Assembly (NCBI GenBank): GCA_964016885.1
Contig: OZ024742.1
Span: 320,850,001-320,914,000, forward strand
DNA: 64,000 bases
Origin: Eledone cirrhosa
Taxonomy: Eukaryota
Direction of reading: 5' to 3'
The translations under genes were made by a program, and so were the position numbers. Numbering within the stretch: the first letter of the stretch is position 1; every line of letters starts with the position of its first letter. The notes beneath the pieces were generated by a model that was not told the DNA's origin, did not search any database, and saw only the letters and a list, made by a program, of their open reading frames with translations. Shown piece after piece: positions 8,846 through 63,501 of this stretch.

Positions 8846-9049
8846 TTAGGAATTTTTCATCAGTGGCGTTTATCCACTCTGTACTGAGAGAAGAATAAGC
8901 TATAGCTTATACGACAACAGATATAGCAATGATACGATCACGTATAAAAACACCCACAGCGAGACATATATTTTATTGTATATAAACATGTTGTATAAAC
9001 CTTCATATGCACCTTCATTAAGAATCACGCTGTATTAGTAATATATATA

Positions 9050-9659: not shown

Positions 9660-9819
9660 AATATAAATATATATGTTTATAACTGATTTAGAGCACTCAA
9701 CAGTTTCCTGCAGTAAATATTCAATGATATTAAATAAATGGAAACTATATTTATAAAACCATATTTATTTTATTATATATATTTCAAGGGTACCAAAACA
9801 CTTCATAAAACAAACTTTG

Positions 9820-9882
9820 TATTTTATCTGAAGAAAGCATACCAAAGTGTTTTGGTACCCTTGAAATATATATAATAAAATA
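9820..9882 (+). ncRNA. Type I hammerhead ribozyme motif, inside fold-back element ~9670-9927
   Basis: TATTTTAT-CTGAAGA-AAG..TACCAAA/TTTGGTA..CTT-GAAA-TATATA-TA-ATAAAATA: 8-bp stem I and palindromic minimal stem III. Confidence 0.8.
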
Positions 9883-10010
9883 AATATGGTTTTATAAATA
9901 TAGTTTCCATTTATTTAATATCATTGTATATATATATATATATACACACACAGATGTACATATGCATGTGTAGTTGTGTGTGACCTTTTTTATATGCGTC
10001 ACGTATACAT

Positions 10011-10372: not shown

Positions 10373-10998
<626 letters not shown>

Positions 10999-11546: not shown

Positions 11547-12102
11547 TTGAAATAAAATGAAAACGAAATTTCATTTCTCACTCTTAGTACGGCACTTACT
11601 TAAATGTAAGTATGTGTGTATACGTACATATGTACGTATACACACATACTTACATTTAAGTAAGTGCCGTACTAAGAGTGAGAAATGAAATTTCGTTTTC
11701 ATTTTATTTCAACTTATCGTTCTCGGTATGCCTGACCGACATAACTCACTCGATATGCAAATTAGGCTGCTCAGCCGTTAATTTTCATAAGGAAAGTATA
11801 TACTTTCGAACGTTCAACTATCTGGCAGATGGGTATACGGTGCTGATGATAGCTAACAAGCTTGAAACTAGTACATCGTTCCTGTGTCAGTGTTGAACAA
11901 AAAGGTGACGTGGTTGCCTTAACACCGTACGGCATAACATTCAGGCTGTTCAGTTTGTTTACAAACGAACAAAGCGGCGTTATAATAAGCGTCCGCTAAA
12001 CTGATACGTGCATATATGTATGTGTACCTGTATGTATATATATATATATATGCATGCTACTGTACGTCTGTATACATATATGTATGTACGTATACACACA
12101 TA

Positions 12103-12106
<4 letters not shown>
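11543..12106 (+). mobile_element. Retrozyme-like element: ~454-nt monomer with terminal redundancy plus a 5' inverted arm
   Basis: GTACGTATACACACATACTTA at 11632 and 12086. Perfect palindrome 11543-11717. Homologous to 46444-46884 and 41907-42320. Confidence 0.75.
11837..11879 (+). ncRNA. Minimal type I hammerhead ribozyme motif
   Basis: ACGGTG-CTGATGA-T-AGCT-AACA-AGCT-T-GAAA-CTAG-TA-CATCGT: stem I 6 bp with one GU, stem II 4 bp, palindromic stem III ACTAGT, predicted cleavage after GUA. Confidence 0.85.
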
Positions 12107-12146
<40 letters not shown>

Positions 12147-18354: not shown

Positions 18355-18538
18355 CGGTTTCAACACACGTTTTCAGATAAAGAATCTTGCTAAACAAATT
18401 CAGAAACGAAATATATATGTATATATATATATATTTATATACTTACACACGAACTACTGACCAAATAATATTTGGTATCAATGGGTTAAAGACATCTGTC
18501 AATTCAATTAGTGGTGAAGGTGATCTGTATATATATAT

Positions 18539-18576
<38 letters not shown>

Positions 18577-20719
18577 TTCTTTATTAGCCACAAGGGCGCA
18601 ACAAGAAAGGGGACAATACAAAGACATGCCGGGGATTTTACATACAGTCGTGTAAAAAATATAAAAACAAACAATTTCAACAATCGAAATCCCCAATAGG
18701 GGGGAGGCGCCACAAATGGGTTGTTTAATACCCCGTCGATAGAACAACCCTCAACTCGAGGAGCGTGTTGTGCAAGTGCTCCTTTCTTCCTTTTGCTCTC
18801 TTCCTCAACCTACAGGCTTATAAACAGAGAAGGCCCAATCACTCGGGCCATTTTCGCTTCATTCACCCACCTTTCAGTAAATTTACTGGGGTGTAGTGCC
18901 TCTCTCTCCACCCTGATTCTCCTTCTAAAGTGATACTTAAAGAAGGGAATCAATTGTTGTCCGGAGAGAAAGGCATCTGTCCTCAGTCCTCTCAACCTCG
19001 TCCACCATATAACTTCTTTCACCATAGCCACCGTACAGAGGAAAACCGCCTCTCTTTCGTTTTTGAAAGAGTCTGGCAGTTTGATCCTTACTATGGACTC
19101 GGCAGTCAACTGTATTTGTCCCATACGCGACAGCAGTTGTTCTGCATAGTTCCACAGGTCGCTTACGCCCGGGCAGTGTACAATTACGTGCAGAACTGTT
19201 TCAATGTCCTGCGCACATCTTGGACACGTCCTCTTGGAAGGATCCCTGCCAGGGCGTCCGTGCCTGTAGATCTTGTCACGAACCGGTAGAGCTCCTCGGT
19301 AGCACTGTCAGGCCAGGGACCTCTGGAAGTTGTCCATAGGTCCCGGGCGGAAAGTCCTACCAAACATACTGGTGAGCTCATCGTCTTCGACGCCCAGAGT
19401 CTCTCCGAGCACGTCGTCGCCCTTGTAACGTACAATCCCTCTATAGAATGTCGAAGTGGAGTCTCCACTGATTGCTGCGCCCGCTTGCCAGAGGACTGTG
19501 AGCGCCTGAGCGCATTCAATATGCCAGGCGCCCATCGTTTTCGGTCTTTTCTTCACCCAGGACTGCAGCTCCGTTAGCGAGACGAGCTGTGGGAAAGCCT
19601 GTCTCACAAACGGTGCCCACACCGGTTGGGGGTCGGTGAGGAATACCTGGAGATGCCGCAGCCTCAGCGCATATTTGCGCATCATCAGCCACGGCATTCC
19701 CAGCCCTCCGTTGGAAGGGTGCTGACAGCAGACGGATCTCCTCACCAGCGGAGCCTGCTTCTTCCACAGAAACTGGAAGAGCATGCGTTCCATCTTGGCG
19801 AGGTGTTCACGGGGACAAGGCACGACAGTCAAGCGGTAGTAGATGACGGACGCTATGAAAGTGTTCGCCACCTCCGCTCGACCTTTCAAGGACAGTTTGC
19901 ACTCTGCCCACTTCTGAGTGAGTGCAAACACCTTGGCCGTGACCTCGTTCCAGCTTTTCTCCACCTGGAGGTCTGGACCGAACCAGACCCCGAGCAATTT
20001 CACCGGTCCGTCCGTCCAGCGTCCAACGACGCTGTCGGGCGTCATCGGTTTGCCTCTCCACGTACCGAGTTGCAAACCGACAGACTTGTCTGGGTTTAGT
20101 TTTGCTCCCGTCAGCGTTTCGTATTCTTTCAGTATGTTGCCGATCACCCCGATTTCCGAGGTGCTCGACACCATTACCGTAACGTCGTCGGCATAAGCCG
20201 ACGCCGCTTTGCGCAGTCCCGGTTCTAGGGGGATGCCCTGCAACAGCTCCAATTTCCGCAGTAGTGGCTCTAGAGTCAATACATACAGAATGGAGGAGAG
20301 AGGGCATCCCTGTCGAATGGAACGCGTGATTGCGAACGGCTCCGATAGGTAGCCGTTCACCTTGACCCTCGAGCAGATGCTGGTGTGCATCGCCTCGATC
20401 CAGCCTCTGAACACGGGACCGAAACCGGCCGCCTTGAGAACCGCTTCCAAGTATCGATGGTCGACTCTATCGAATGCCTTAGACTGATCCAAGTTGATCA
20501 GAGCCCCACCGAAGCTGGGTTTACTACCCACCCTCTCTATGATGTATCGCATGAGGTGGAGGTTGTCGTGTATGGACCTGGTCGGGATTGCACACGTTTG
20601 CGCTTTCCCTACCAGGTTCTCGACGACAAGCGCCAACCTCGTCGCTAGCACCTTGGCCAAAATCTTTAACTCTGTGTTGAGCAGAGTTATGGGCCTGAAG
20701 TTGTTAATTTCGTCCCCCA

Positions 20720-31447: not shown

Positions 31448-34400
31448 GGCGGCGAATTGGCAGAGTCATTAGAACGTCAGATAGAATGGCAGAGTCATTA
31501 GAACGTCAGATAGAATGGCAGAATCATTAGAACGTCAGATAGAATGGCAGAGTCATTAGAACGTCAGATAGAATGGCAGAGTCATTAGAACGTCAGATAG
31601 AATGGCAGAGTCATTAGAACGTCGGATAGAATGGCAGAGTCATTAGAACATCAGATAGAATGGCAGAGTCATTAGAACGTCGGATAGAATGGCAGAGTCA
31701 TTAGAACGTCAGATAGAATGGCAGAGTCATTAGAACGTCGGATAGAATGGCAGAGTCATTAGAACGTCGGATAGAATGGCAGAGTCATTAGAACGTCGGA
31801 TAGAATGGCAGAGTCATTAGAACGTCAGATAGAATGGCAGAGTCATTAGAACGTCGGATAGAATGGCAGAGTCATTAGAACGTCTGATAGAATGGCAGAG
31901 TCATTAGAACGTCAGATAGAATGGCAGAGTCATTAGAACGTCGGATAGAATGGCAGAGTCATTAGAACGTCGGATAGAATGGCAGAGTCATTAGAACGTC
32001 GGATAGAATGGCAGAGTCATTAGAACGTCGGATAGAATGGCAGAGTCATTAGAACGTCGGATAGAATGGTAGAGTGGTTAGAACGTCGGATAGAATGGCA
32101 GAGTCATTAGAACGTCAGATAGAATGGCAGAGTCATTAGAACGTCAGATAGAATGGCAGAGTCATTAGAACGTCGGATAGAATGGCAGAGTCATTAGAAC
32201 GTCGGATAGAATGGTAGAGTGGTTAGAACGCCTGATAGAATGGCAGAGTCATTAGAACGTCGGATAGAATGGCAGAGTCATTAGAACGTCAGATAGAATG
32301 GCAGAGTCATTAGAACGTCGGATAGAATGGCAGAGTCATTAGAACGTCGGATAGAATGGCAGAGTCATTAGAACGTCAGATAGAATGGCAGAGTCATTAG
32401 AACGTCGGATAGAATGGCAGAGTCATTAGAACGTCGGATAGAATGGCAGAGTCATTAGAACGTCGGATAGAATGGCAGAGTCATTAGAACGTCAGATAGA
32501 ATGGCAGAGTCATTAGAACGTCGGATAGAATGGCAGAGTCATTAGAACGTCAGATAGAATGGCAGAGTCATTAGAACGTCGGATAGAATGGCAGAGTCAT
32601 TAGAACGTCGGATAGAATGGCAGAGTCATTAGAACGTCAGATAGAATGGCAGAGTCATTAGAACGTCGGATAGAATGGCAGAGTCATTAGAACGTCAGAT
32701 AGAATGGCAGAGTCATTAGAACGTCGGATAGAATGGCAGAGTCATTAGAACGTCGGATAGAATGGCAGAGTCATTAGAACGTCGGATAGAATGGCAGAGT
32801 CATTAGAACGTCGGATAGAATGGCAGAGTCATTAGAACGTCGGATAGAATGGCAGAGTCATTAGAACGTCAGATAGAATGGCAGAGTCATTAGAACGTCG
32901 GATAGAATGGCAGAGTCATTAGAACGTCAGATAGAATGGCAGAGTCATTAGAACGTCGGATAGAATGGCAGAGTCATTAGAACGTCGGATAGAATGGCAG
33001 AGTCATTAGAACGTCAGATAGAATGGCAGAGTCATTAGAACGTCGGATAGAATGGCAGAGTCATTAGAACGTCAGATAGAATGGCAGAGTCATTAGAACG
33101 TCGGATAGAATGGCAGAGTCATTAGAACGTCGGATAGAATGGCAGAGTCATTAGAACGTCGGATAGAATGGCAGAGTCATTAGAACGTCAGATAGAATGG
33201 CAGAGTCATTAGAACGTCGGATAGAATGGCAGAGTCATTAGAACGTCTGATAGAATGGCAGAGTCATTAGAACGTCAGATAGAATGGCAGAGTCATTAGA
33301 ACGTCGGATAGAATGGCAGAGTCATTAGAACGTCGGATAGAATGGCAGAGTCATTAGAACGTCGGATAGAATGGCAGAGTCATTAGAACGTCGGATAGAA
33401 TGGCAGAGTCATTAGAACGTCGGATAGAATGGTAGAGTGGTTAGAACGTCGGATAGAATGGCAGAGTCATTAGAACGTCAGATAGAATGGCAGAGTCATT
33501 AGAACGTCAGATAGAATGGCAGAGTCATTAGAACGTCGGATAGAATGGCAGAGTCATTAGAACGTCGGATAGAATGGTAGAGTGGTTAGAACGCCTGATA
33601 GAATGGCAGAGTCATTAGAACGTCGGATAGAATGGCAGAGTCATTAGAACGTCAGATAGAATGGCAGAGTCATTAGAACGTCGGATAGAATGGCAGAGTC
33701 ATTAGAACGTCGGATAGAATGGCAGAGTCATTAGAACGTCAGATAGAATGGCAGAGTCATTAGAACGTCGGATAGAATGGCAGAGTCATTAGAACGTCGG
33801 ATAGAATGGCAGAGTCATTAGAACGTCGGATAGAATGGCAGAGTCATTAGAACGTCAGATAGAATGGCAGAGTCATTAGAACGTCGGATAGAATGGCAGA
33901 GTCATTAGAACGTCAGATAGAATGGCAGAGTCATTAGAACGTCGGATAGAATGGCAGAGTCATTAGAACGTCGGATAGAATGGCAGAGTCATTAGAACGT
34001 CAGATAGAATGGCAGAGTCATTAGAACGTCGGATAGAATGGCAGAGTCATTAGAACGTCAGATAGAATGGCAGAGTCATTAGAACGTCGGATAGAATGGC
34101 AGAGTCATTAGAACGTCGGATAGAATGGCAGAGTCATTAGAACGTCGGATAGAATGGCAGAGTCATTAGAACGTCGGATAGAATGGCAGAGTCATTAGAA
34201 CGTCGGATAGAATGGCAGAGTCATTAGAACGTCAGATAGAATGGCAGAGTCATTAGAACGTCGGATAGAATGGCAGAGTCATTAGAACGTCAGATAGAAT
34301 GGCAGAGTCATTAGAACGTCGGATAGAATGGCAGAGTCATTAGAACGTCGGATAGAATGGCAGAGTCATTAGAACGTCAGATAGAATGGCAGAGTCATTA

Positions 34401-36465
34401 GAACGTCGGATAGAATGGCAGAGTCATTAGAACGTCAGATAGAATGGCAGAGTCATTAGAACGTCGGATAGAATGGCAGAGTCATTAGAACGTCGGATAG
34501 AATGGCAGAGTCATTAGAACGTCAGATAGAATGGCAGAGTCATTAGAACGTCGGATAGAATGGCAGAGTCATTAGAACGTCGGATAGAATGGCAGAGTCA
34601 TTAGAACGTCGGATAGAATGGCAGAGTCATTAGAACGTCAGATAGAATGGCAGAGTCATTAGAACGTCGGATAGAATGGCAGAGTCATTAGAACGTCAGA
34701 TAGAATGACAGAGTCATTAGAACGTCAGATAGAATGGCAGAGTCATTAGAACGTCGGATAGAATGGCAGAGTCATTAGAACGTCAGATAGAATGGCAGAG
34801 TCATTAGAACGTCAGATAGAATGGCAGAGTCATTAGAACGTCGGATAGAATGGCAGAGTCATTAGAACGTCGGATAGAATGGTAGAGTGGTTAGAACGCC
34901 TGATAGAATGGCAGAGTCATTAGAACGTCGGATAGAATGGCATAGTCATTAGAACGTCAGATAGAATGGCAGAGTCATTAGAACGTCGGATAGAATGGCA
35001 GAGTCGTTAGAACGTCAGATAGAATGGCAGAGTCATTAGAACGTCAGATAGAATGGCAGAGTCATTAGAACGTCGGATAGAATGGCAGAGTCGTTAGAAC
35101 GTCAGATAGAATGGCAGAGTCGTTAGAACGTCGGATAGAATGGCAGAGTCATTAGAACGTCAGATAGAATGGCAGAGTCATTAGAACGTCAGATAGAATG
35201 GCAGAGTCATTAGAACGTCAGATAGAATGGCAGAGTCGTTAGAACGTCGGATAGAATGGCAGAGTCATTAGAACGTCAGATAGAATGGCAGAGTCATTAG
35301 AACGTCGGATAGAATGGCAGAGTCATTAGAACGTCAGATAGAATGGCAGAGTCATTAGAACGTCAGATAGAATGGCAGAGTCGTTAGAACGTCGGATAGA
35401 ATGGCAGAGTCATTAGAACGTCAGATAGAATGGCAGAGTCATTAGAACGTCGGATAGAATGGCAGAGTCATTAGAACGTCGGATAGAATGGCAGAGTCAT
35501 TAGAACGTCAGATAGAATGGCAGAGTCATTAGAACGTCGGATAGAATGGCAGAGTCATTAGAACGTCAGATAGAATGGCAGAGTCATTAGAACGTCAGAT
35601 AGAATGGCAGAGTCATTAGAACGTCGGATAGAATGGCAGAGTCATTAGAACGTCGGATAGAATGGTAGAGTGGTTAGAACGCCTGATAGAATGGCAGAGT
35701 CATTAGAACGTCGGATAGAATGGCAGAGTTTATTAGAACGTCAGATAGAATGGCAGAGTCATTAGAACGTCAGATAGAATGGCAGAGTCATTAGAACGTC
35801 AGATAGAATGGCAGAGTCGTTAGAACGTCAGATAGAATGGCAGAGTCGTTAGAACGTCGGATAGAATGGCAGAGTCATTAGAACGTCAGATAGAATGGCA
35901 GAGTCGTTAGAACGTCGGATAGAATGGCAGAGTCGTTAGAACGTCAGATAGAATGGCAGAGTCGTTAGAACATCAGATAGAATGGCAGAGTCATTAGAAC
36001 GTCGGATAGAATGGCAGAGTCGTTAGAACGTCAGATAGAATGGCAGAGTCATTATAACGTCAGATAGAATGGCAGAGTCATTAGAACGTCAGATAGAATG
36101 GCAGAGTCGTTAGAACGTCAGATAGAATGGCAGAGTCATTAGAACGTCAGATAGAATGGCAGAGTCGTTAGAACGTCGGATAGAATGGCAGAGTCATTAG
36201 AACGTCAGATAGAATGGCAGAGTCATTAGAACGTCAGATAGAATGGCAGAGTCGTTAGAACGTCAGATAGAATGGCAGAGTCATTAGAACGTCAGATAGA
36301 ATGGCAGAGTCATTAGAACGTCGGATAGAATGGCAGAGTCATTAGAACATCGGATAGAATGCTTTATGGTATTCGTTCTGACTCTCTGCTCTCTGAGATC
36401 AAACCCAGCCGAGGTCAACTTTGCCTTTCATCCTTTTGAGGTCGATAAAAAAAGTACCAATCTGG
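31448..36465 (+). mobile_element. tRNA-derived SINE whose head contains the expanded satellite
   Basis: Starts GGCGGCGAATTGGCAGAGTC. After the array it continues GCTTT..TCTGAGATCAAACCC.GCCGAGGTCAACTTTGCCTTTCATCCTT..GAGGTCGATAAAA..GTACCA, as in the 20845 copy. Confidence 0.88.
31458..36360. repeat. 29-bp satellite TGGCAGAGTCATTAGAACGTC(G/A)GATAGAA, about 169 units
   Basis: Unit read directly. A 1363-bp (47-mer) higher-order duplication is marked by variants at 31881/33244 and 32068/33431. Confidence 0.98.
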
Positions 36466-41944: not shown

Positions 41945-42041
<97 letters not shown>

Positions 42042-42269
42042 TACGGCTGATACTTAAATATAAGCATGTATACGTACATACATATATGTATGCAGACGTA
42101 CAGTAGTATGTATATACATACATACATGCACACATATATATATATTTGTACGTATTGGTTTACCGAACATTTATTATAATGTTCGGTTTGTTTGTAAACA
42201 AACAGCCCGAATTAAGCCGTACAGTGTTCGGCAACCATCGTTGCCCTTTTGTTCAACACAGACAAAGGA

Positions 42270-42312
42270 ACGATGAATTAGTTTCTAGCTTATTAGCTGT
42301 CATCAGCACCGT
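42270..42312 (-). ncRNA. Hammerhead motif, copy of 11837 (stem III mutated)
   Basis: Minus strand ACGGTG-CTGATGA-C-AGCT-AATA-AGCT-A-GAAA-CTAA-TT-CATCGT. Confidence 0.7.
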
Positions 42313-42382
42313 ATACTTGTTTAACATCCGTATCGTACAATATAAATATTTATACTCTGCTATGTATTGAGTACCTCACTTA

Positions 42383-45970: not shown

Positions 45971-46320
45971 GACTATATGTATATATGTATGTATGTATGC
46001 ATGCATGTATGCATGTGTGCATGTATGTATCTATGTATGTCTATATATGTGGGTAGGTATATATATATATATATATATGCAACAGTTATATTTAATTTGT
46101 TGGGGTTCAACAAGCTTAAAAGTTTTATAACTGATATAAAGCACTCAACAGTTACTGGAGTAGATATTCAATATATTAATAAATGGAAACTATATTTATA
46201 AAACCATAATTATTTTATTATATATATTTCAAGAGCAACCCAGTCAAATTTTGGTGCGCTCTTATCAACCGTCAAGGTTGTTTTTCTGCGGGTATGTCAA
46301 TATTTATAAAACAAATTTTG

Positions 46321-46386
46321 TATTTTATCTGATGAAAGCGCACCAAAATTTGCCTTGGTTGCCCTTGAAATATATATAATAAAATA
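46321..46386 (+). ncRNA. Type I hammerhead ribozyme motif (family of 9820), in fold-back element ~46080-46430
   Basis: TATTTTAT-CTGATGA-AAG-C-GCACCAA..TTGGTTGC-C-CTT-GAAA-TATATA-TA-ATAAAATA. Stem II sequence differs from 9820 but still pairs. Confidence 0.85.
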
Positions 46387-46443
46387 ATTATGGTTTTATA
46401 AATATAGTTTCCATTTATTAATATATTGTATATATATATATAT

Positions 46444-46884
46444 ATGGAAAAAATGAAATTTCATTTTTCACTCTTAGTACGGCTGATACTTATATATAAG
46501 TATGTATACGTACATACATATATGTATACAGACGTACAGTAGTATGTATATACATACATACATGCACACATATATATATATATATGTACGTATGGGTTTA
46601 CCGAACATTTATTATAATGCTCGGTTTGTTTGCAAACAAACAGCCCGAATTAAGCCGTACAGTGTTCGGCAACCATCGTTGCCATTTTGTTCAACACTGA
46701 CAAAGGAACGATGAACTAGTTTCTAGCTTATTAGCTGTTATCAGCACCGTATACCTTCCTGTCAGTTGATTGAACGTTTGAAAGTATATACTTTCCTTAT
46801 GCATATTAACGGTTGAGCAGCCTAATTTGCATATCGACTGAGTTAGTCGGCCGGGCGTACCGAAAACGATAAATGGAAAAAATG
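46444..46884 (-). mobile_element. Retrozyme-like ~429-nt monomer, circularly permuted relative to 11632-12106; its HHR at 46708-46750 has core CTGATAA (mutated)
   Basis: ATGGAAAAAATG at 46444 and 46873. Its ends map to the interior of the 11.6-kb copy. Confidence 0.75.
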
Positions 46885-46888
46885 TACG

Positions 46889-46978
<90 letters not shown>

Positions 46979-47210
46979 TAAGGTAATGAATTCTTTTACA
47001 ATGGAATCAGCTCGAATGAGGAAAAATATCCCCTGAGCAGTGTATAAATTAATATGTAAGTGATGAAACACAGATACCAACATATCTGTATATATATTGC
47101 AAAAGAAAAATTTAGCCAGATTGAAGTATACTAATTATTATACTACAGTTTGTCCATATCGATTTAAAATAATAAATCAACGGAGACGAACTGTATTGGC
47201 AAAAGGCCGT

Positions 47211-47338
47211 GATGTTTAGACACATTTAAATTTCAAAATCAAACCTGTTCCGTAGATAAGTTTAGACTTTAAGATCCAAATATGTTTCGAGTTAAATAAG
47301 TGTAGGAATATCATGTCCCGCCCTCCTCAGTAAACATC
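47211..47338 (-). ncRNA. Type I hammerhead ribozyme motif with long stem III (mirror of 47740-47867)
   Basis: Reverse complement of 47740-47867. Confidence 0.8.
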
Positions 47339-47739
47339 CAGAGACAAATTGATATGCTTCACTTCTAAATGATTTAAAAGACTGCGTGACGCACATGGCT
47401 TTACAGTATCTAACTAGTCTCATAACCGTACTGCTAGAAATAACAGTCGTATATATGAGATAGTTTGCAGCTCAATATGTTGGTATCTGTGTTTCATCAC
47501 TTACATATTAATTTATACACTGCTCAGGGGATATTTTTCCTCATTCGAGCTGATTCCATTGTAAAAGAATTCATTACCTTATTAATTTTAACTGCTCCTA
47601 GTTTGAGCTGCAAACCATCTCATATATACGACTGTTATTTCTAGCAGTACGGTTATGAGACTAGTTAGATACTGTAAAGCCATGTGCGTCACGCAGTCTT
47701 TTAAATCATTTAGAAGTGAAGCATATCAATTTGTCTCTG

Positions 47740-47867
47740 GATGTTTACTGAGGAGGGCGGGACATGATATTCCTACACTTATTTAACTCGAAACATATTT
47801 GGATCTTAAAGTCTAAACTTATCTACGGAACAGGTTTGATTTTGAAATTTAAATGTGTCTAAACATC
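47740..47867 (+). ncRNA. Type I hammerhead ribozyme motif with long stem III
   Basis: GATGTTTA-CTGAGGA-GGG..CTC-GAAA-CATATTT..AAATGTG-TC-TAAACATC: 8-bp stem I, ~25-bp imperfect stem III, GUC site at 47857-47859. Confidence 0.82.
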
Positions 47868-48028
47868 ACGGCCTTTTGCCAATACAGTTCGTCTCCGTTG
47901 ATTTATTATTTTAAATCGATATGGACAAACTGTAGTATAATAATTAGTATACTTCAATCTGGCTAATTTTTTCTTTTGCAATATATATACAGATATGTTG
48001 GTATCTGTGTTTCATCACTTACATATTA

Positions 48029-48090
<62 letters not shown>

Positions 48091-48344: not shown

Positions 48345-51300
48345 GTATTACCACAATCACCCCACCCCCCACCAGCAAAAAAAACACCAACACAACCCCA
48401 AACAGAAATGCCGACCATAAAAATAAAACTACAAAATGAACAACAAACCAAAACAACACAACAAAAAAACAAACAATACACATACATTAACACAAACAAC
48501 AAAAACCTAATTGAGGTCATCTCCCAAGACCCCAAAGTAAAAACTGAGGGGAAAACTTTTGTCAAGGAAGACTCTCAACCACACCTAAAACTGATAAGGG
48601 TTTCGATAGAAATCTATCAGAAATTAAAAGAACAATTTTCGCAGGACGTTGGCAACCCCTGTCAAAAGCCCATTAACCGCGTCCTATTAAAATGTTTCCC
48701 CACCCCACTCAACTCCCCCACCAGCACCCAAATGGAGATTGAACAACCCGATCTCCAGGAAACGAAAAGGTAAGTGCAACTTTTTGTCCTTTTTCGCCAA
48801 CTCTTCTCCACCAACATGGCTAATTTACGAATTAGAAGTGTGAATGTGCGTGTCCTAGGGATGCCCTGGAAACAGGGCCAACTTTTAAACGACCTTAGAT
48901 CACACGGTATGGATGTGATATCCATCACCGAGTCCAGGATCCACAACAGGCAGCAACTAACCCCCATCTTCAATGACTTTGAGTTCTACGCATCTCTCTG
49001 TCAGCCAGGAAGTGGAGGGAGAGTGGCTGTCGTGTTTCGGAAAAACCTGGACCTCGAAGTACAGCAAGTACACTTGGACCCGGAGGGTAGACTGGTAGTC
49101 CTAGACGTGAACAGTATTGGAGGTGGAGCCTTCAGTCTGGTGGCCGTTTATGCCCCGACCGGGCAATCGCAATCACGGCCAGACTTCTTTAAGCGTCTAG
49201 AGTCTTTTCTGGGAACGTCTCGCTCGTTGCTTTTAGTGGGGAACTGGAATGGTATCCTAGATGCACGATGGGACTATGTGGGAGCATGTGCCTGTAGAGG
49301 GGCGTGCAACAGCCTCAAAAATTTAATCGGCCAATACCAACTGGCCGATAGGTATCGACTAGATTTCCCGACTGCACCACAGTGGACGTGGACAAACAGC
49401 AGCGGGACATCTTGATCGTATTTAGACGGGTTCTTTATTAGAGAGAGAGACAAGAAGATGTTAAGCTGTCCAAGAATGCACACGGTTGCCTATTCAGACC
49501 ACAAACTAGTCATCTGCATAGTCAAACGTGATAGAATACATAGACAAGGATCCCGATACTGGAAGCTGAACGTGTCGCTACCGACACGTAAAGCCTACAG
49601 TGAACGGATAAGTAGATTAGTTAAGCAACAGTTGACGGGAACCATCGTCAACAACAGATGGTGGTACTCTCTCAAGAGAGCAATTAGAGTAGAGTCGATA
49701 GACTTTAACAGAGAATTAGCCTTAGAGAAAAACAAAACAGAAACAGAACTAGTAGCCAAAGTAGAGGAGGCGCTTAGGAGGGAAACGCAGCTAGAGTGCT
49801 AGCAACGAGACACAGCACTGGACTAGTTCTTCAACGCGAAACACGAAGGCTGCGTGGTCAGAAGTAAATCACGTGCTCTAGGAAACGAGGGAGCAAAAGC
49901 TGTTAGCTGGGCCCGAGTGGCAGAAGCAAAAAGTGGCAACAAGTCCACGATTCGGTCTTTGAAAGACCAAAACGGACGCGTGCTACTTGACGCCAAGAGG
50001 ATGTGCGCGGCCTTTCAGTGGCACTTTGCGCAACTGTTCGAGCAGAGTGGCGGTGCGTTGAACGGGGCAATGGACTTCGGTTCATACCTCGACGGCCTGC
50101 CGCGTCTCTCGAGGATGGACGCCGAGTTCTGCGAAAGACCGATCACAGCCACTGAGATACGGGACGCTCTGGCCCGCTGCGGGAAACGCAAAACACCCGG
50201 TTTAGATGGTCTACATCTGCTCGACGGTCAAGGTGAACGGCTATCTATCGGAGTCGTTCGCAATCACGCGTTCCATCCGATAGGGATGCCCTCTCTCCTG
50301 CATTCTGTACGTGCTGACTCTGGAGCCACTACTGCGGAAGTTGAAGCTGCGGCAGGGCATCCCTTTGGAACCGGGACTGCGGAAAGCGGCGTCGGCATGT
50401 GCCGACGACGTGTCAGTAATGGTGTCGGAAACCTCGGAAATCGGGGCGATCGGCAACTTACTGCAGAAATACGAAAGGCTCACAGGAGCAAAACTGAACC
50501 CGGACAAGTCTGTCGGTTTACAACTCGGAACGTGGAGAGGCAAACCGATGCCGTCCGACAGCGTCGTCGGACGCTGGACAGAAGGACCGGTGAAATTGCT
50601 CGGGGTCTGGTTCGGTCCGGACCTCCAGGTAGAGATAAACTAGAACGAGGTCACGGCGAAGGTATCTGCGCTCACCCAGAAGCGGGCAGAGTGCAAACTA
50701 TCCTTGAAAGGTCGAGCGGAGGTGGCGAACACTTTCATAGCGCCTGTCATCTACTACCGCTTGACCGTCGTGCCTTGTCCCCGTGAACACCTCACCAAGA
50801 TGGAACGCATGCTCTTCCAGTTCCTTTGGAAGAAGCAGGCTCCACTGGTGAGGAGATCCGTCTGCTGTCAGCACCCTTCCAACGGAGGGCTGGGAATGCC
50901 GTGGCTGATGATGCGCAAACATGTGCTGAGGCTACGGCATCTCCAGATATTCCTCACCGACCAACCGGTGTGAACACCGTTTGTGAGACAGGCCTTCCCG
51001 CAACTTCTCTCGCTGACGGAACTGCAGTCCTGGGTCAAGCGGAGACCGAAGAAGATGGGCGCCTGGCACATTGAATGCGCTCACAGTCCTCTGTCAAGCG
51101 GGCACGGCAATCAGTGGAGACTCCACTTCGTCATTCTATAGACGGTTAGTACGTCACAAGAGCCACGACGTGCTCGGAGAGACTCTAGGCGTCGAAGACG
51201 ACGAACTCACCAGTCTGTTTGGTAGGACATTCCGCTGTTTGGTAGGACATTCCTATGGACAACTTCCAGGGGTCCCTGGCCTGGTAGTGCTACCGAGGAG

Positions 51301-51830
51301 CTCTACCAGTTCGAAAAAAGATCTACAGGCACGGACGCCCCGGCAGGGATCCTTCCAAGAGGACGTTTCCAAGATGCGAGCAGGACATTGAAACCGTCTT
51401 GCACGAAATTGTACACTGCCCGGCCATAACTGATCTGTGGAACTACGCAGAACAATTGCTGTCGCGTATGGGACAAATCCAGTTGACTGCCGAGTCCATA
51501 GTAAGGATCAAACCACCAACTTCTTTCAAAAACGAAAGAGAGGGTGAATGTGGCAAAAATGGCCCGAGTGATTGGGCTTTCTCTGTATATAAACCTGTAG
51601 GTTGAAAAAGAGAGCAAAAGGAAGAAAGGAGCACTTGCACAACACGCTCCTGAAGTTGAGGGTTGTTCTATCTACGGGGTATTAAACAACCCATTTGTGA
51701 CGCCTCCCCCCTATTGAGGATTTCGATTGTTAAATTTGTTTGTTTCAATATTTTTACACGATTGTATGTAAAATCCCCGGCATGTGTCTTTGTTTTGTCC
51801 CCTTTTCTTGTGCGCCCTTGTGGCTAATAA

Positions 51831-55000: not shown

Positions 55001-56833
55001 ATGGCGGAAAAGATGGCAGACATGTCTGCCATTAGCTCTGCCACGCCCCCCAAGTCTGAAGAACAAAAAATAATTACAACAAAAATAGACAATGAAACAA
55101 ACAAAGAAAATGAAAAAACAAATGTTAAGGAAAATGAGCAAACAGAAAACAAACAAACAGAAAATAATACAAATAACAACAGGGCAACTTTCGCCCAGAA
55201 AACAAAACAATCCATTACATACACACCAATTGACCTAACTGCCGCCAGAGAAAAACTGGCCGAAGCAAAGAAACACATTGTTTTGGGGAAGAACGGAATG
55301 TTTTCCATTAACTCCCCCCCAGAATTCAAGAAAGCCAGAGCAGAAAACACAGTTCTCTACAGAACTATACTGAACCAGACAAGAAAGCCAGCACAGCCCA
55401 GCCAAATGGAAATAGAGTTAGTCCTAAAAGACTATATGAAGAATATTCTCTTCATACGAAAGGACCGACTCTATGGCAGCATTTCGGTCCTAACAAGAGA
55501 CAAAGAAACGGCGGAGAAGCTTTCCCTAAGCTCACTCTCGTCGACAACATATAGCTTCTATCCCTCCTACATGGGTAGAAGAACACAGAGAGTAAAAGTA
55601 AAAACAATGCTGCCCACAATGGACTTCTGGTGGGCTATTGCTGGCTTCATTGATATGGGCGAAGACACAATGCTGTCAATGGGGAAGGCAACTGGAGATG
55701 CGTTCCTGGGAATGGGCCTCGACATACTAGTCCAAATGAGGCCCGAAAGAATAGCACAAATCCCGGATCGCATCTGGCTGGATGACCTTACCCCAATAGA
55801 CATAATTGTAGAGGGGAGAAGACCAGCATGCTATTTATGCATGGAAAGGGGACACGTTAAGGCTAACTGCCCGAAACGTATCCCCCAAAAAGGACTATTG
55901 CCCACACCCACCACAAACAGTACACCAACACCACCCACCTCCAAAAATACACTAATACCACACACAGCAAACAAAATACAGACACCACCAACCACAAACA
56001 CAACACAAACATCACCACCACCAGCACCAAACACAAGCACGACACAAAAATCACCACCACCAACCACAACACAAACATCACCACCACCATCACCAACCAC
56101 AAGCACGACACAAACATTACCACCACCACCACAAAACCCATTCCAAACAAATAATAAAAAAAACAGTAACAAATCTACCCCTCCCGCAAAAAAAAAACAA
56201 CCACACAACACGTCCCTCCCACCTAGCGCTGAAGAGTTTCCCCCAACTTCTGAAGAAGAAGGAGGAGAAGCCTTCAGACAAGTTAAAGGAAAAAAAAGAA
56301 AACACACACCCAGCACACCACAAATAACCCACACACAAACACCAACTCCAATCAAAAACACCCCACCCTCAACAAACAAAAATAAATCTGCGCCTCCCCT
56401 CTCCGAAACATTGACAGCATCACAAAAAAAGACGTTGCAATACACATATATAAATAAAGAAAACAAAAAACTGGTTAAATTAATAAACAATAACCCTATG
56501 GTGCAGACCGAAGGGCCAAACTTTATCTCAACAGAGAACTTCACCCATTTAAAAATGATAAAGGTCCCTCTGGACCTTTATCGTTCCTTAAAAGAACAAT
56601 TTAGACGGGGCGTGAGCCCCCCCTGTTTAAAACCGTTGAATCGCGTCCTCTTGAAAGATTTCCCCATAACCGCCCCTCTCCCTGACACAACTCCAAATAC
56701 CCCAACCCCACCACACACGTGTACCCCCACACCACCACAAAACATCCCTCCACCCAACACACCTGATGCCATGGAAATTACGCAACCCGGAGAGGTAAGT
56801 GCTTTTCTTTCTTCACTTTCAACACCAAAATAG
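55001..56833 (+). CDS. LINE ORF1 (gag-like) with CCHC zinc knuckle and Pro/Thr-rich region
   Basis: 610-aa open frame from ATG 55001; CYLCMERGHVKANC. C-terminal block is conserved with 48470-48770. Confidence 0.88.
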   Translation: MAEKMADMSAISSATPPKSEEQKIITTKIDNETNKENEKTNVKENEQTENKQTENNTNNNRATFAQKTKQSITYTPIDLTAAREKLAEAKKHIVLGKNGMFSINSPPEFKKARAENTVLYRTILNQTRKPAQPSQMEIELVLKDYMKNILFIRKDRLYGSISVLTRDKETAEKLSLSSLSSTTYSFYPSYMGRRTQRVKVKTMLPTMDFWWAIAGFIDMGEDTMLSMGKATGDAFLGMGLDILVQMRPERIAQIPDRIWLDDLTPIDIIVEGRRPACYLCMERGHVKANCPKRIPQKGLLPTPTTNSTPTPPTSKNTLIPHTANKIQTPPTTNTTQTSPPPAPNTSTTQKSPPPTTTQTSPPPSPTTSTTQTLPPPPQNPFQTNNKKNSNKSTPPAKKKQPHNTSLPPSAEEFPPTSEEEGGEAFRQVKGKKRKHTPSTPQITHTQTPTPIKNTPPSTNKNKSAPPLSETLTASQKKTLQYTYINKENKKLVKLINNNPMVQTEGPNFISTENFTHLKMIKVPLDLYRSLKEQFRRGVSPPCLKPLNRVLLKDFPITAPLPDTTPNTPTPPHTCTPTPPQNIPPPNTPDAMEITQPGEVSAFLSSLSTPK

Positions 56834-59800
56834 ATCAATTGAGAGTTGGCTGTTTGAACGCGCGTGGCCTGGGCTCAGCTTGGAAGCAAGCAAAGCTTCT
56901 AAGTGACCTCAGGTCACAAAGTATAGATGTGATGGTTGTTTGCGAGAGTCGGATCAGCAGCGTGAGACAGCTGGCGCCCGCCTTCGATGACTTTGAGATG
57001 CACGCATCTCTCTGTCAACCCGGAGGCGGGGGGGGCGGGAGTTGCCGTACTGCTGGATAAACGTCTGACTCTCGACGTACAGATTGTTCACTCGGACCCG
57101 GGGGGTCGATTACTGGTGCTGGACGTCGGAGGCGGTGAAGGCGGGGCCTTCAGACTGGTCGGTCTTTATGCTCCCTTCGGGGCGGAAAGAGCCGACTTCT
57201 TCCAGCGTCTGGAGACTTTTCTAGGAACGTCGCGTTCCCTGCTTTTAGTGAGGGACTGGAATGGAATCCTAGATGCGCGTTGGGACTATGCAGGGGCATG
57301 TCCCGATAGAGGGGGGTGTAGCAGCCTCAAGGGGTTACTCGATCGATTCGACCTGGTCGATAGATTTCGACTAGATTGTCCAACTGCGCCAACCTGGACC
57401 TGGGCAAACCGCAGTGGACAATCTAGATCGTACCTAGATAGGTTTTTGGTTAGGAATAAGGATAGGGACGTATTTAGTTGTCCAGAACTGATCATGGTTG
57501 GCTATTCAGATCACAAATTAGTGACCTGCGTGGTCAACCTTGATAGAACGCATAGACAGGGTCCCGGTTACTGGAAGATGAACTTGTCCTTACCGACAAA
57601 GAAAGATTACAGAAACCGGATTAGTAGCTTAGTTAAGATGCGGTTGACGGGAGCGATCGTCAACAGTAGGTGGTGGATATCTCTAAAGAGAGAGATTAGA
57701 GTAAGTTCGATAGGTTACAGTAAGGAACTAGCGGCGAATAGAAATAGGAGGGAAAGGGAGTTAACAGATAAACTAGAAGAGGCGATTAGGAGCGGAGACG
57801 TAGCCAGAGTGTTAGCGACGAGAACGGCATTGAGCCAGTTCTTTGACGCGAAGCACGAAGGCTGCGTTGTCCGAAGTAAAATACGTGCTTTAGGAAACGA
57901 GGGGACCAAAGCTGTTAGCTGGGCCCGCGTGACAGAAGCCAAGAGTGGGATTAAATCCACCATTCGGTCTTTGCGAGACCAGGATGGACGGGTGATCCTT
58001 GAACCTGAGCGAATGTGCGAGACCTTTCAAAGGCACTTTGCTCGACTGTTCGGAGGTGGCGGGGGGCCGGACGGGGATGTGGACTTCGGTCCATACCTCG
58101 ACGGTCTACCGCGTCTTTCGAGCGGCGAAGCGGAGTGCTGCGAAAGGCCAATCACAGCCACTGAAATCGGGGAAGCGCTCAGCCAATGCAGCAGACGCAA
58201 ATCCCCGGGTCTCGATGGTCTACCATACGAACTTTATTTAGCTATGCCGGTCTTGTTCTCCGAACTCCTCAAGGCTGTCTATTGCAACTGGCAACAGAAC
58301 GGGAGAATTCCCTGTTCTGTGACCAAGGGCGTGGTCACGCTAGTGAGGAAGGACGAGAGCAAGGGGGACGACTTAAGTAACTTTAGGCCCATAACTCTGC
58401 TGAATGCAGAGTTACAGATTTTGGCCAAGGTGTTGGCGAAGAGGTTGGCGCTTGTGGTGGGTGGTTTGGTGGGAGACGCGCAGACATGCGCTATCCCGTC
58501 CAGGTCCATTCACGACAACCTCCACCTCATGCGATACATCATAGAGAGGGTTGGCTACGAACCCGGCTTTGGTGGGGCCCTGATCAACTTGGATCAATCT
58601 AAGGCGTTCGATAGGGTCGACCATGGTTACCTGGATGCGGTGCTAGCGGCGGCGGGCTTCGGACCCGTTTTCAGGGGCTGGATTTCTGCCATGCACAGTG
58701 GCAACATCTACTCTAGGATTAAAGTAAACGGCTACCTCTCGGAGCCGTTTCAAATCACCCGATCCATCAGACAGGGGTGCCCCCTCTCCTCCCTTCTGTA
58801 CGTATTGACTCTCGAGCCACTGCTGCGGAAGTTGGAGTTGCTGCGGGGCATACCCCTGGAACCGGGATTGCACAAAGCGGTCTCGGCCTATGCCGACGAC
58901 GTAACAGTAATGGTGGCGGACGCCTCGGAAATCGGGGCGATCGCCACCCTACTGGAGGAATACGAAAGGCTGACGGGGGCTAAGCTGAACCAGGACAAGT
59001 CAGTCGGTTTGCAACTCGGAACGTGGAGGGGCAAACCGATGCCGTTAGACGGTGTCGTCGGGCGGTGGACGGAGGGCCCGGTGAAGCTGCTCGGGGTCTG
59101 GTTCGGACCGGACCTCCAGGTGGAGAAGAATTGGGGCGAGGTGACGAGCAGGGTGTTTGCGCTGACCCAGAAGTGGGCCAAGTGCAAACTATCACTGAAA
59201 GGTCGGGCGGAGGTGACGAACGCTTACATAGCGTCCGTCATCTACTACCGCCTGACCGTCGTGCCTTGCCCCAAGGAAAAGCTCACCATCATGGAACGCA
59301 TGCTCTTCCAGTTCCTCTGGAAGAAGCGGCCTCCCATGGTGAGGAGATCCATCTGCTGCCAGCACCCTTCGAAAGGAGGGCTGGGTATGCCGTGGCTGTT
59401 GATGCGTAGGCACGCATTGAGGCTACGGCATCTACAGGTATTCCTCAACGGTCAGCCGGTGTGGGCCCCGTTTGTGAGGCGAGCCTTCCCACAGCTCGTC
59501 TCGCTCACCGAACTGCAATCCTGGGTGAAGCAAAGACCGAGAAAACTGGGCAACTGGCACACCGAGTGTGCCCAGGCGCTCACGGCTATCTGGCAAGCGG
59601 ACCCGACTGTCAGTGGAGAATCCACCTCGACATTCTATAGAGGGTTGGTGGCTAGCAGGGGCGACGACACCCTTGGAGAGTCGCTAGGCATGGAGGAGGA
59701 CGAACTGGCCAGCCTGTTCGGTAGAACTTTCGGCCCGGGACCCATGGACAACTTCCAGAGGTCCCTAGCCTGGCAGTGTTACCGGGGGGCTCTGCCCGTT

Positions 59801-60271
59801 CGAGAAAAGCTCTACAGACACGGGCGCCCGGGCAGGGATCCCGCGAAAAAGATCTGTCCCAGATGCGTGCGCGACGAGGAAACCGTTGCGCATGCACTGG
59901 TACACTGCCCGGGCGTTGCCGATCTGTGGGGCTACGTCGAACGACTGCTGTCGCGTGTGGCGCCGATTCGATTAACCGCCGAGTCTGTGGTGAACATCAA
60001 GCCGCCTCCTCCCTTCAGAAATGAAGCAGAGGCGGTCTTTCTGTGCGTAATAGCCATGATGAAAGAGGTTGTGTGGTGGACGCGCCTGAAAGGTCTGAGG
60101 TCGGGTGACTTTCTCTCCGGCCATCACCTGGTTTACTTCTTCCGATACCACTTCGGAAGAAGAATCAGGATGGAGAGAGAAGTGCTTGGTCCCAGACAGT
60201 TTTATGAAAGGTGGGTGAAAGAAGCGAGAATGGCCCGTGTAAATGGGCCTTCTCTCTACATTGTTCTGTAG
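56830..60271 (+). pseudogene. LINE ORF2 (APE endonuclease, RT, C-terminal Cys/His motif) with one +1 frameshift
   Basis: LRVGCLNARG, LYAP, SYLDR, YSDHK, KSPGLDG, KAFDRVDH, QGCPLS, AYADD, CPRC..ET..HAL..C. Extra G in the G8 run 57028-57035. Probable start codon reads ATA at 56830. Confidence 0.9.
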
Positions 60272-60502
60272 GTGAAGAAGTGAAGAGGAAAGGGGGAGCG
60301 CCTCCTCTCTGGGCTTCCCCCGCGAAAAGAGTTGCACACTTTTCGGGGGTATGTGCAATCCCCAACACGCCCCCTCCCTTTTGAGGACTTTTTATTGTTA
60401 TATTATTATTGTTATTCCTTTTTTCTTTACTCGATTTATGTAAACTCCCCCACTGTGTAAATGTCCCCTTCTTTTGTGCCCTCGTGGCAAATAAATAGAA
60501 AT

Positions 60503-60564
<62 letters not shown>

Positions 60565-63501
60565 GTCCCGCTCCTTGCTATTAGTGGAGAACTGGAATGG
60601 TATCCTAGATGCACGTTGGGACTACGTAGGGGCCTGTGCCGATAGAGAGGGGTGTAATAGCCTCAAAGGGTTAATCGGTCGATTTGACCTGGCCGATAGA
60701 TATCGACTAGATTTTCCGACTGCGCCAACCTGGACTTGGGCAAACCGTAGCGAATCATCTAGGTTGTACTTAGATAGGTTCTTAGTTAGAAATAAGGATA
60801 AGGACTTTTTAAGTTGTCAAAAAATGCGCATGGTTGGCTATTCAGACCACAAGTTAGTGACCTGCATGGTCAACCTTGACAGAACGCATAGACAGGGACC
60901 CGGTTACTGGAAGCTCAACGTGTCCTTACTGGCAAGTAAGGCTTACAGGGACCGGATTAGCACTTTAGTTAAGGAGCGGTTGACGGGCGCCATCGTGGTG
61001 GGGATCTCTCAAAAGAGAGATTAGAGTAGTCTCTATAGAATTTAGTAAGGAGTTAGCCTCAAATAGAAATAGGAAAGAAAGGGAGTTGGTAGATAGTGTA
61101 GAAGAGACAATTAGAAGCGGCGACGTGGCCAGAGTGCTAGCGTCGAGAACGGCCCTGGGCCAGTTCTTCGACGCGAAACACGAAGGCTACATCGTCCGAA
61201 GCAAAATACGTGCTCTGGGAAACGAGAGGACCAAAGCTGTTAGCTGGGCCCGCGTGACAGAAACCAAAAGAGGGAGTAGATCCACTATCCGGTCTTTGCG
61301 AGATCAGGATGGACGGGTGATCCTTGAACCTAAGCAGATGTGCGAGGCTTTTCAAAAGCACTTTGCCAGATTGTTCGGAAGGGGCGGGGAGCTGGTTGAA
61401 GGAGTGGACTTCGGTCCATACCTCGATGGCCTGCCGCGTCTCTCGGACAGGGAGGCGAAGTCCTGCGAGGAGCCGATTTCAGCCGCTGAGATAGAGGACG
61501 TGCTGAGCCAATGCGGCAAACGCAAATCCCCGGGTCTCGATGGTCTTCCATACGAAATATATCTAGCTATGCTGGACTTGTTCCCCGATCTCCTCGAGGC
61601 GGTCTACTGCAACTGGCAACAGAACGGGAGAATTCCCTGTGCTGTGACCAAGGGCGTAGTCACGCTAGTGAGGAAGGACGAGAACAAGGGGGACGATATA
61701 AATAATTTCAGGCCCATAACTCTGCTAAATACAGAGTTACAGATTTTGGCCAAGGTGCTAGCAAAGAGGTTGGCGCTCGTCGTGGGAAACCTGGTGGGAG
61801 ATGCGCAGACATGTGCTATCCCGTCCAGGTCCATCCACGACAACGTCCACCTCATGTGATACATCATAGAGAGGGTTGGGAACGAACCCGGCTTTGGTGG
61901 GGCCCTGATCAACTTGGATCAATCTAAGGCGTTCGATAGGGTCGACCATGGTTACCTGGATGCGGTGCTAGCGGCGGCAGGCTTCGGACCCGTTTTCAGG
62001 GGCTGGATCAATGCCATGCACAGCAGCCGCATCTGCTCTAGGGTCAAGGTGAATGGCTACCTCTCGGAGCCGTTCGAAATCGCGCGGTCCATCCGACAAG
62101 GGTGCCCTCTCTCCTCCCTTCTGTATGTAATGACTCTAGAGCCACTGCTGCGGAAGTTGGAGTTGTTGCATGGCATTCTGTTGGAACCGGGATTGCGGAA
62201 AGTGGTGTCCGCCTACGCCGATTACGTAACAGTGATGGTGTCGGCGGCCTCGGAAATCGGGGCGATCGGCACCTTACTGGAGGAGTAAGAAAGGTTTACA
62301 GGGGCTAAGCTGAACCGGGACAAATCGATCGGTCTGCAACTCGGCACGTGGAGGGGCAGATCGATGCCCTCCGATGGCGTCGTCGGGCGCTGGACGGAGG
62401 GCCCGGTGAAGTTGCTCGGGGTCTGGTTCGGACCAGACCTCCAGGTGGAGAAGAACTGGGGTGAGGTAACGAACAGGGTGTTTGCACTGACCCAGAAGTG
62501 GGCCGAGTGCAAACTGTCCCTGAAAGGTCGGGCGGAGGTGGCGAACACTTATATAGCGTCGGTCATCTACTACCGCCTGACAGTTGTGCCTTGCCCAAGG
62601 GAAACGCTCGCCAAAATGGATCGCGCACTCTTCCAATTCCTTTGGAAGAGGCGGGCTCCTATGGTGAGGAGATCCATCTGCTGTCAACACCCTTCGAAAG
62701 GAGGGCTGGGGATGCCGTGACTAATGATGCGTAAACACGCATTAAGGCTATGGCACCTCCATGTATTCCTCACCGGTCAACAGGTGTGGGCCCCGTTTGT
62801 GAGGCGAGCCTTTCCCAGACTCGTCTCGCTCACCGAGCTGCAATCCTGAGTCAAGCAAAGACCGAGAAAACTGGGCGCCTGGCACACCGAGTGTGCCCAG
62901 GCGCTCACGGCTCTCTGGCAGGCGGACCCGGCTGTCAGTGGAGAATCCACCTCGTCATTCTATAGAGGGCTGGTGGTTAGCAGGTGCGACGACGCCCTTG
63001 GAGAAGACCTAGGCATGGAGGAAGACGAACTGGCCAACCTGTTCGGTAGGACATTTAGCCCGGGAGCCACGGATAACTTCCAGAGGCCCTGGCCTGGCAG
63101 TGCTACCGAGGGGCTCTGCCCGTTCGAGAAAGGCTCTACAGACACGGGCGCCCGGGTAGGGACCCCTCGAAAAAGATCTGTCCCAGATGCGTGTGCGACG
63201 AGGAAACCGTTGCACACGCATTGGTACACTGCTCGGGCATTGCCTATCTGTGTGGCTATGTCGAACAACTGCTGTCAAGGGTGGGACCGATCCGGTTGAC
63301 CACCGAGTCTATTGTAACGATCAAGCCGCCTCCCCTCTTCAAAAACGAAGGAGAGGCGGTATTTCTGTGCGTAATAGCCATGGCGAAAGAGGTTGTATGG
63401 TGGACGCGTCTGAAAGGACTGAGGTCAGACACCTTTCTCTCTGGCCAACAACTGGTCCGTTTCTTCCGATATCATTTCGGAAGAAGGATCAGGATGGAGA
63501 G

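Follow-up and report, generated by a model that had tools for sequence, protein, structure and literature searches.

A 518-nt hammerhead repeat with Penelope-type ends in Eledone cirrhosa, probably inserted by priming at two sites on one RNA

We analysed a window of 64,000 nt from the genome of Eledone cirrhosa (GCA_964016885.1, contig OZ024742.1, positions 320,850,001 to 320,914,000), by which we mean this whole stretch, and all coordinates below count from its first letter. The results indicate that the insertion at 46974-48035 belongs to a 518-nt hammerhead repeat that is abundant and non-coding and has ends of the Penelope type; a Penelope-like element (PLE) protein priming at two sites on one RNA probably inserted it. 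The family is a new addition to the known class of animal non-LTR retrozymes and non-autonomous PLEs. In the proposed mechanism, the PLE protein would be supplied in trans by an autonomous element encoding RT and GIY-YIG, and it would nick both strands of a (TA)n tract. A single RNA would offer two fixed start sites, with one cDNA primed at each, and microhomology of 1-15 nt would link the two cDNAs where their 5' ends are truncated. The template would most likely be a circle, cut by the ribozyme and then re-ligated, which is copied over 0.1 to several rounds; the source of such circles would be other loci, in which two or more ribozymes share one orientation.

Architecture of the locus and its hammerhead ribozymes

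Self-comparison of the window returned two inverted matches, one of 433 nt (47043-47475 with 47603-48035) and one of 112 nt (46974-47085 with 47475-47586), together with a 43-nt direct repeat (47475-47517 and 47993-48035) at a spacing of 518. This direct repeat and the mapping of both arms on the unit (Table 1) bear out the initial annotation, which had described the locus as an inverted dimer of one 518-nt ribozyme monomer. It had also recognised that the right arm re-enters its own start and that the left arm runs on the minus strand through the same junction to sequence matching 47586; we place the end of the re-entry at 48035, after 43 nt, and not at 48033, and the start of the left arm at sequence matching 47603 and not 47604. 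The arms differ at 2 of 502 nt, in agreement with the young age assigned to the insertion, and the outer ends of both face (TA)n. Each arm holds one hammerhead, and the two lie in opposite orientations.

The head-to-head layout is not due to chance: its 433-nt arms are near-perfect, and it recurs at dozens of loci. A palindrome flanked by microsatellites is difficult to assemble, but an assembly chimera, or an inverted duplication at the DNA level with no RNA step, is highly improbable, as the layout recurs at 45 two-arm loci (32 in the counted set described below and 13 among further long loci) with differing breakpoints and fixed outer ends, and the arms of the window locus differ at 2 sites. 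The one-off chimeric assembly considered in the initial annotation is likewise unlikely, given the identical layout at 40 or more loci.

Table 1. Features of the inverted insertion and its flanks (window 46,892-48,080)
Feature	Position	Strand	Remark
Left flank, (CA)n/(TA)n target microsatellite	46892..46973	.	sequence
Left arm, monomer 129-518 + 1-112; 3' end = long ("tailed") start site	46974..47475	-	
69-nt tail, monomer 44-112, left-arm end only	46974..47042	-	
Structured region spanning both start sites	46974..47120	-	fold; function inferred
Left-arm type I hammerhead, predicted cut after C47219 (minus)	47211..47338	-	identical to right-arm ribozyme
Head-to-head junction, two 5' ends overlap 1 nt	47475..47475	.	
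Right arm, monomer 1-518 + 1-43; 3' end = short start site	47475..48035	+	
Right-arm type I hammerhead, long helix III, predicted cut after C47859	47740..47867	+	
Right flank, (TA)n target microsatellite	48036..48080	.	sequence

The only reading frames in the element are stop-to-stop frames of 61-66 aa or frames that run into the microsatellite. Neither an RT nor a GIY-YIG ORF is present in it, and an autonomous PLE was therefore rejected as its identity; across the 64-kb window, no match to a PLE protein was found. A target-site duplication is unreadable within (TA)n. Because the locus carries one ribozyme per arm, it is unable to release a monomer or circle itself, and we regard it as an ordinary young daughter copy and a dead end. 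Its transcript would fold into a hairpin of ~430 bp.

Stem I of the right-arm ribozyme pairs 47740-47747 with 47860-47867 and is the open helix of the hammerhead. The core comprises CUGAGGA (47748-47754), GAAAC (47790-47794) and GUC, and the predicted cut after C47859 corresponds to unit position 385. Folding of 47735-47875 gave stems I and III (z -3.5; 0/200 shuffles equally stable). Rfam returned no hammerhead match at the gathering threshold or at E<=10, where the matches were hairpin or TA artefacts, and for this reason the ribozyme call rests on core motifs and covariation. We surveyed stem I over 43 distinct stem variants from relatives and found that pair 1 was A-U in 15 and G-C in 24, pair 4 U-A in 13 and C-G in 23, pair 5 G-C in 26 and A-U in 14, and pair 7 A-U in 19 and G-C in 18. 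Three variants did not pair, all from rearranged or mis-parsed copies. Core motifs, fold and covariation thus agree with the earlier description of an intact hammerhead in each arm.

The catalytic core was also conserved among copies. Template-inherited alleles numbered 0 at its 16 positions versus 83 at 440 other positions, and single-unit changes numbered 21 versus 311 elsewhere (Fisher p 0.011; a binomial version was borderline, p 0.052). As judged from sequence conservation, this points to a need for cleavage and not for circularisation.

Fixed 3' ends and one tail per inverted insertion

We searched the 3.0-Gb host genome with the 518-nt unit and obtained 1,061 candidates, of which 39 were scored. 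A 20-nt motif common to the subfamilies had 3,369 exact matches genome-wide and a helix III motif had 1,242, with 0 for the reversed-pattern control in both cases. The 518-nt hammerhead repeat is abundant, with thousands of copies in the genome, and the GC content of its unit is 33%. After removal of 19 short loci superseded by larger stretches, 134 unique insertions were mapped. The counted set consists of the 67 insertions with an identity of at least 85%; the other 67 were excluded from the counts because their tail region was unalignable. The counted insertions comprised 34 single-armed copies, 32 inverted two-arm copies and 1 rearranged copy, frequencies that are indicative, as the sample combines the best matches, pattern matches taken in order on one chromosome and chosen multimers. 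In the pattern-picked subset alone, the two-arm share was 18/36. Four contig sets of unrecorded type contained many monomer variants; these have no bearing on expression or on the window locus.

Among the arms of the counted insertions, 94/101 had their 3' ends at unit 36-46 or 103-117 (~43 and ~112). Measured downstream from the cut site, the two sites lie at 176 and 245 nt, a separation of 69 nt. (TA)n adjoined all 94 standard 3' ends, with (TA)3 within 20 nt in 94/94, in a genome that is itself TA-rich. With two fixed sites, 69 nt apart, for the 3' ends, we identified the tail as a PLE tail. The initial annotation had read the arms as two different circular permutations and had suggested mapping the ends of all genomic copies. 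This mapping contradicts a free choice of permutation on the 3' side, where fixed ends, a part of what it had named as contrary evidence, were found across the family; the 5' ends were variable and spread round the unit. An apparent clustering of 5' ends at 402-408 was not significant, being reached by 101/300 jittered sets, and was discarded.

The annotation had derived both arms from a circular or tandem RNA template, as by rolling reverse transcription of a circRNA, with a strand switch in between. Arms exceeding one period, seamless junctions and homogeneous arrays would all be expected from one rolling reverse transcript of a circle whose ends may fall anywhere, but 3' ends fixed at two sites (94/101) and paired one of each (39/40, see below) make it very unlikely. 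The region around the start sites (46974..47120, minus strand) was predicted to form two hairpins closed by a long-range stem (z -3.98; 0/200 shuffles as stable), and the fold of the corresponding region in a sister family resembles it. On this modelled structure, the region is likely an RT-recognition element.

Single-arm copies were short-ended in 16 cases, tailed in 17 and of another kind in 1. With the two ends about equally frequent, independent ends would yield one of each about half the time. We found exactly one tailed end at 27/28 scorable inverted loci (4 further loci had one eroded end) and at 12/12 in a set of 20 further long loci (13 two-armed, 1 of them unscorable), giving 39/40 inverted insertions in the pooled data (p 4e-11 against 0.5). 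One-tailed pairs also made up 5/6 in an autonomous PLE family of the same genome. At lineage sites, arms of one locus were discordant in 3/190 comparisons in the young set, against 30.1% between loci, and in 6/800 in all loci, against 28.7%. Raw within-locus divergence was smaller than that to the nearest other locus in only 24/49 loci, an uninformative test. Taken together, one tailed end per pair and arms that share lineage alleles point to twin priming on one template. Of 32 junctions, 23 overlapped by 1-15 nt, 1 was blunt, 6 carried inserts and 2 had longer overlaps. The simplest account would be two target-primed cDNAs, one per start site, copied from one RNA or source and joined by microhomology.

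The inverted arm could instead arise by fold-back (self-priming) of one cDNA, with no second target priming, as proposed for rotifer Penelope elements in the excerpted text of PMC3846280. The short overlaps at 23/32 junctions and the common lineage of both arms agree with fold-back, and lengths are compatible with it at 22/27 loci (mean of permutations 18.1, p 0.048; the way loci were chosen confounds this figure). However, a single fold-back is impossible at 5/27 loci, the window locus among them, where each arm holds ordered sequence that the other lacks, and it does not explain why, in the many cases where the longer arm has the short end, the copied arm should end precisely at the other start site. 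We therefore consider fold-back unlikely. As fold-back is unable to give the window locus, two primings are the better reading of the inversion, and with one-of-each ends in 39/40 insertions they are also preferred to the single strand switch between the arms that was first suggested. Arm lengths were negatively correlated (rho -0.65); we set this correlation aside, as it was likely produced by selecting loci in which one arm or both were long.

The RNA template and a candidate PLE partner

The cut site was crossed by 75/98 arms, with 0 indels in 100 crossings. Only 2/98 of the 5' ends lay near it (381-391), and 68/74 ribozyme junctions in the long loci were identical. A cleaved linear monomer was rejected as template, as arms copied from it would reach no further than 176 or 245 nt or would carry scars, neither of which was seen. 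Crossing without scars indicates that the template was a re-ligated circle or an uncut tandem RNA, and the claim of the initial annotation that reverse transcription of a template with more than one period produced the arms is upheld.

Two or more cut sites were present in 21/98 arms of a sample enriched for long copies, and in 5/56 of the pattern-picked subset. Tandem units of one arm disagreed in 13/328 and 22/1,346 comparisons at lineage sites. The long arrays contain 9.1, 7.2, 6.4 and 5.3 units and keep the standard ends; their unit lengths are array-specific (518, 517, 514 and 516), and their differences are 37 singleton versus 6 subset-shared. Of the 6 subset-shared differences, 4 lie in the longest array, L262, and the units of L010 belong to mixed lineages, which shows that some tandems are not single-template rolling products. 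The subset-shared differences of L262 imply later local expansion or a template change. Its 9.1 units (2449-7186) fall into contiguous blocks of shared variants, and these blocks suggest local expansion after insertion. The predicted circular unit is highly self-paired (z -4.3; 0/40 shuffles).

Long arrays whose unit lengths are particular to each array speak for rolling copying of a circle, although they do not prove it, and the array sequences tip the balance slightly towards a circular template over an uncut tandem RNA. PLE-driven insertion might otherwise start from an uncut linear tandem transcript, with the ribozyme only freeing the RNA from read-through and the arrays growing later by local events; this is a genuine possibility, short of an expectation. 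An anole PLE predominantly used uncut RNA as template in vitro, where ribozyme cleavage was unneeded (PMC11167929, excerpted text). The subset-shared differences of L262 and the mixed units of L010 would also follow from an uncut template, and the seamless ribozyme junctions fit it equally well. Its daughters would necessarily be shorter than their parents, yet multi-unit arms persist (21/98), and three of the four long arrays show a star-like pattern and a unit length of their own.

Returning to the circle, we put forward tentatively, and not expecting every part to hold, that a dimeric PLE protein would use one start site per nicked strand and read a single ribozyme-ligated circle for up to several rounds, with a head-to-head join of the two cDNAs, so that the family would form a genome-wide fossil record of the Penelope reaction on circular RNA. 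If this is true, one mechanism would cover tail, palindrome and tandem, and animal retrozyme circles would be directly evidenced as transposition intermediates.

A genome search for GIY-YIG gave 10,597 candidates, of which 150 were scored and 20 loci examined. Several of the 20 loci hold frames of up to ~900 aa with RT and with GIY-YIG at the C terminus, and they are Neptune-like by the single feature of CxxC motifs in the linker. The 518-nt unit was not found as a pLTR or terminal repeat among these 20 loci (of 150 scored). PLE coding DNA lay near 11/124 family loci and was a separate neighbour in 10 of them. At L178 (3266-3770), the 5' end of a diverged copy joins straight onto 246 nt of PLE coding DNA, which matches the L084/L093 family at 97%; (TA)n lies outside, and the PLE sequence does not continue further. 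It is the one direct PLE fusion among 66 single-arm 5' flanks and is best read as a template-switch chimera. On this reading, the L084/L093 PLE family is a candidate partner, resting on one event.

Downstream of the ORF, L084, L093 and L096 belong to an abundant autonomous PLE family with 3,981 exact end-motif matches, a minimal hammerhead recognised by eye and a tail of ~45 nt. The short end of this family resembles the last ~17 nt of the tailed end of the 518-nt unit, a weak motif.

Relation to known elements and other repeats in the window

Animal non-LTR retrozymes are non-coding tandem units with type I hammerheads; circles have been shown in coral, mussel and axolotl, and PLE proteins are proposed as the machinery (PMC7229834; 2026 preprint bioRxiv 2026.07.22.740005; excerpts of both). 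The present family shares with the retrozymes of these excerpts its non-coding, low-GC tandem units with a type I hammerhead each, a range from monomers to multimers, co-existence with PLEs and a highly self-paired predicted circle. Retrozymes were first described at 150-450 bp and span 51-972 bp in the preprint, and the unit here is 518 nt. The family differs in its long helix III, in that no sister pLTR was found here, and in that its circles are predicted. Fixed twin 3' ends, tails and inverted arms are absent from the retrozyme descriptions in the excerpted text of these two sources. The same preprint calls retrozymes active when they hold at least two consecutive ribozyme units, which the window locus does not and 21/98 arms elsewhere do. 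The idea of a circle is an already published hypothesis for the retrozyme class, and mobilisation of the circles by PLEs is described there as proposed and undemonstrated (PMC7229834; bioRxiv 2026.07.22.740005, as excerpted).

PLE anatomy includes partial tandems, an inverted 5'-truncated copy and a one-sided tail (PMC8557442; PMC3846280, excerpts). In the anole PLE, the tail extends from one to the other of two internal RT start sites, which lie downstream of the hammerhead, both target strands are nicked and extended, and a dimer is predicted (PMC11167929, excerpt). Endonuclease-bearing PLEs (Penelope/Poseidon, Neptune), as excerpted from these three sources, share with the present family 5' truncation, partial tandems, the inverted 5'-truncated copy, a one-sided tail between two RT start sites past the hammerhead, and (TA)n targets. 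They differ in having a tail of 30-40 nt and a minimal hammerhead, against 69 nt and a full-size hammerhead here (PMC8557442; PMC3846280; PMC11167929); the 518-nt unit, for its part, has no ORF and is the pLTR of none of the 20 coding loci examined.

Non-autonomous Chlamys derivatives, e.g. MRC1, resemble the present family as non-autonomous PLE partners with pLTRs and head-to-tail multicopy insertions. They resemble their autonomous family at the 3' end, whereas here only a weak end motif is common with the candidate partner, and Chlamys lacks canonical hammerheads, whereas the 518-nt unit has one of type I (PMC8557442 for the Chlamys elements). The same paper names the origin of PLE tails and of tandem and inverted insertions as unresolved. 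In the present family, insertions that are short, young and alignable number in the thousands; they obey the one-tail rule almost strictly, and their arms come from the same template. One-sided tails were already described, and the added value lies in a quantified one-tail, one-template rule.

L1 twin priming uses primers from two target nicks and yields an inversion joined by microhomology; the internal position at which its second primer anneals varies, and its arms are without overlap. The two-nick microhomology inversion is shared by the present family, but here both starts are fixed and the arms copy the same sequence. A plant LTR retrozyme (type III hammerhead in LTRs, PBS/PPT, 4-bp TSD) was rejected, as the open helix is stem I and the layout is tandem or inverted with no LTR pair. 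Among the publications listed for cephalopod hammerheads or retrozymes and for PLE twin priming, we found neither the family nor a one-tail count, although supplements may hold such.

The window contains further repeats. A short head-to-head copy of the sister family, tailed on one arm only, lies at 10478-10945. This family has a period of ~497 nt, is ~72% alike over unit 424-552, and carries a hammerhead with a CAGAAGA core and a short helix III; the genome holds 3,314 candidates of the family. Short palindromic insertions in (TA)n were observed at 46120-46436 and 9676-9945, with a possible minimal hammerhead by eye (CUGANGA...GAAA, palindromic helix III); their monomer folds were not significant (z -1.2 and -1.8), and they are possibly the ends of another PLE. 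A dispersed ~400-nt repeat with palindromic ends occurs at 46450-46890, where it adjoins the element, and at 11600-12110 and 41960-42316. Beside the element, at 48774-51600, lies a broken LINE with endonuclease/exonuclease/phosphatase and RVT_1 pieces, and LINE-related copies were found at ~18500-20700 and 56800-63500. Two long tandem satellite arrays occupy 1-8852 and 31458-36361.
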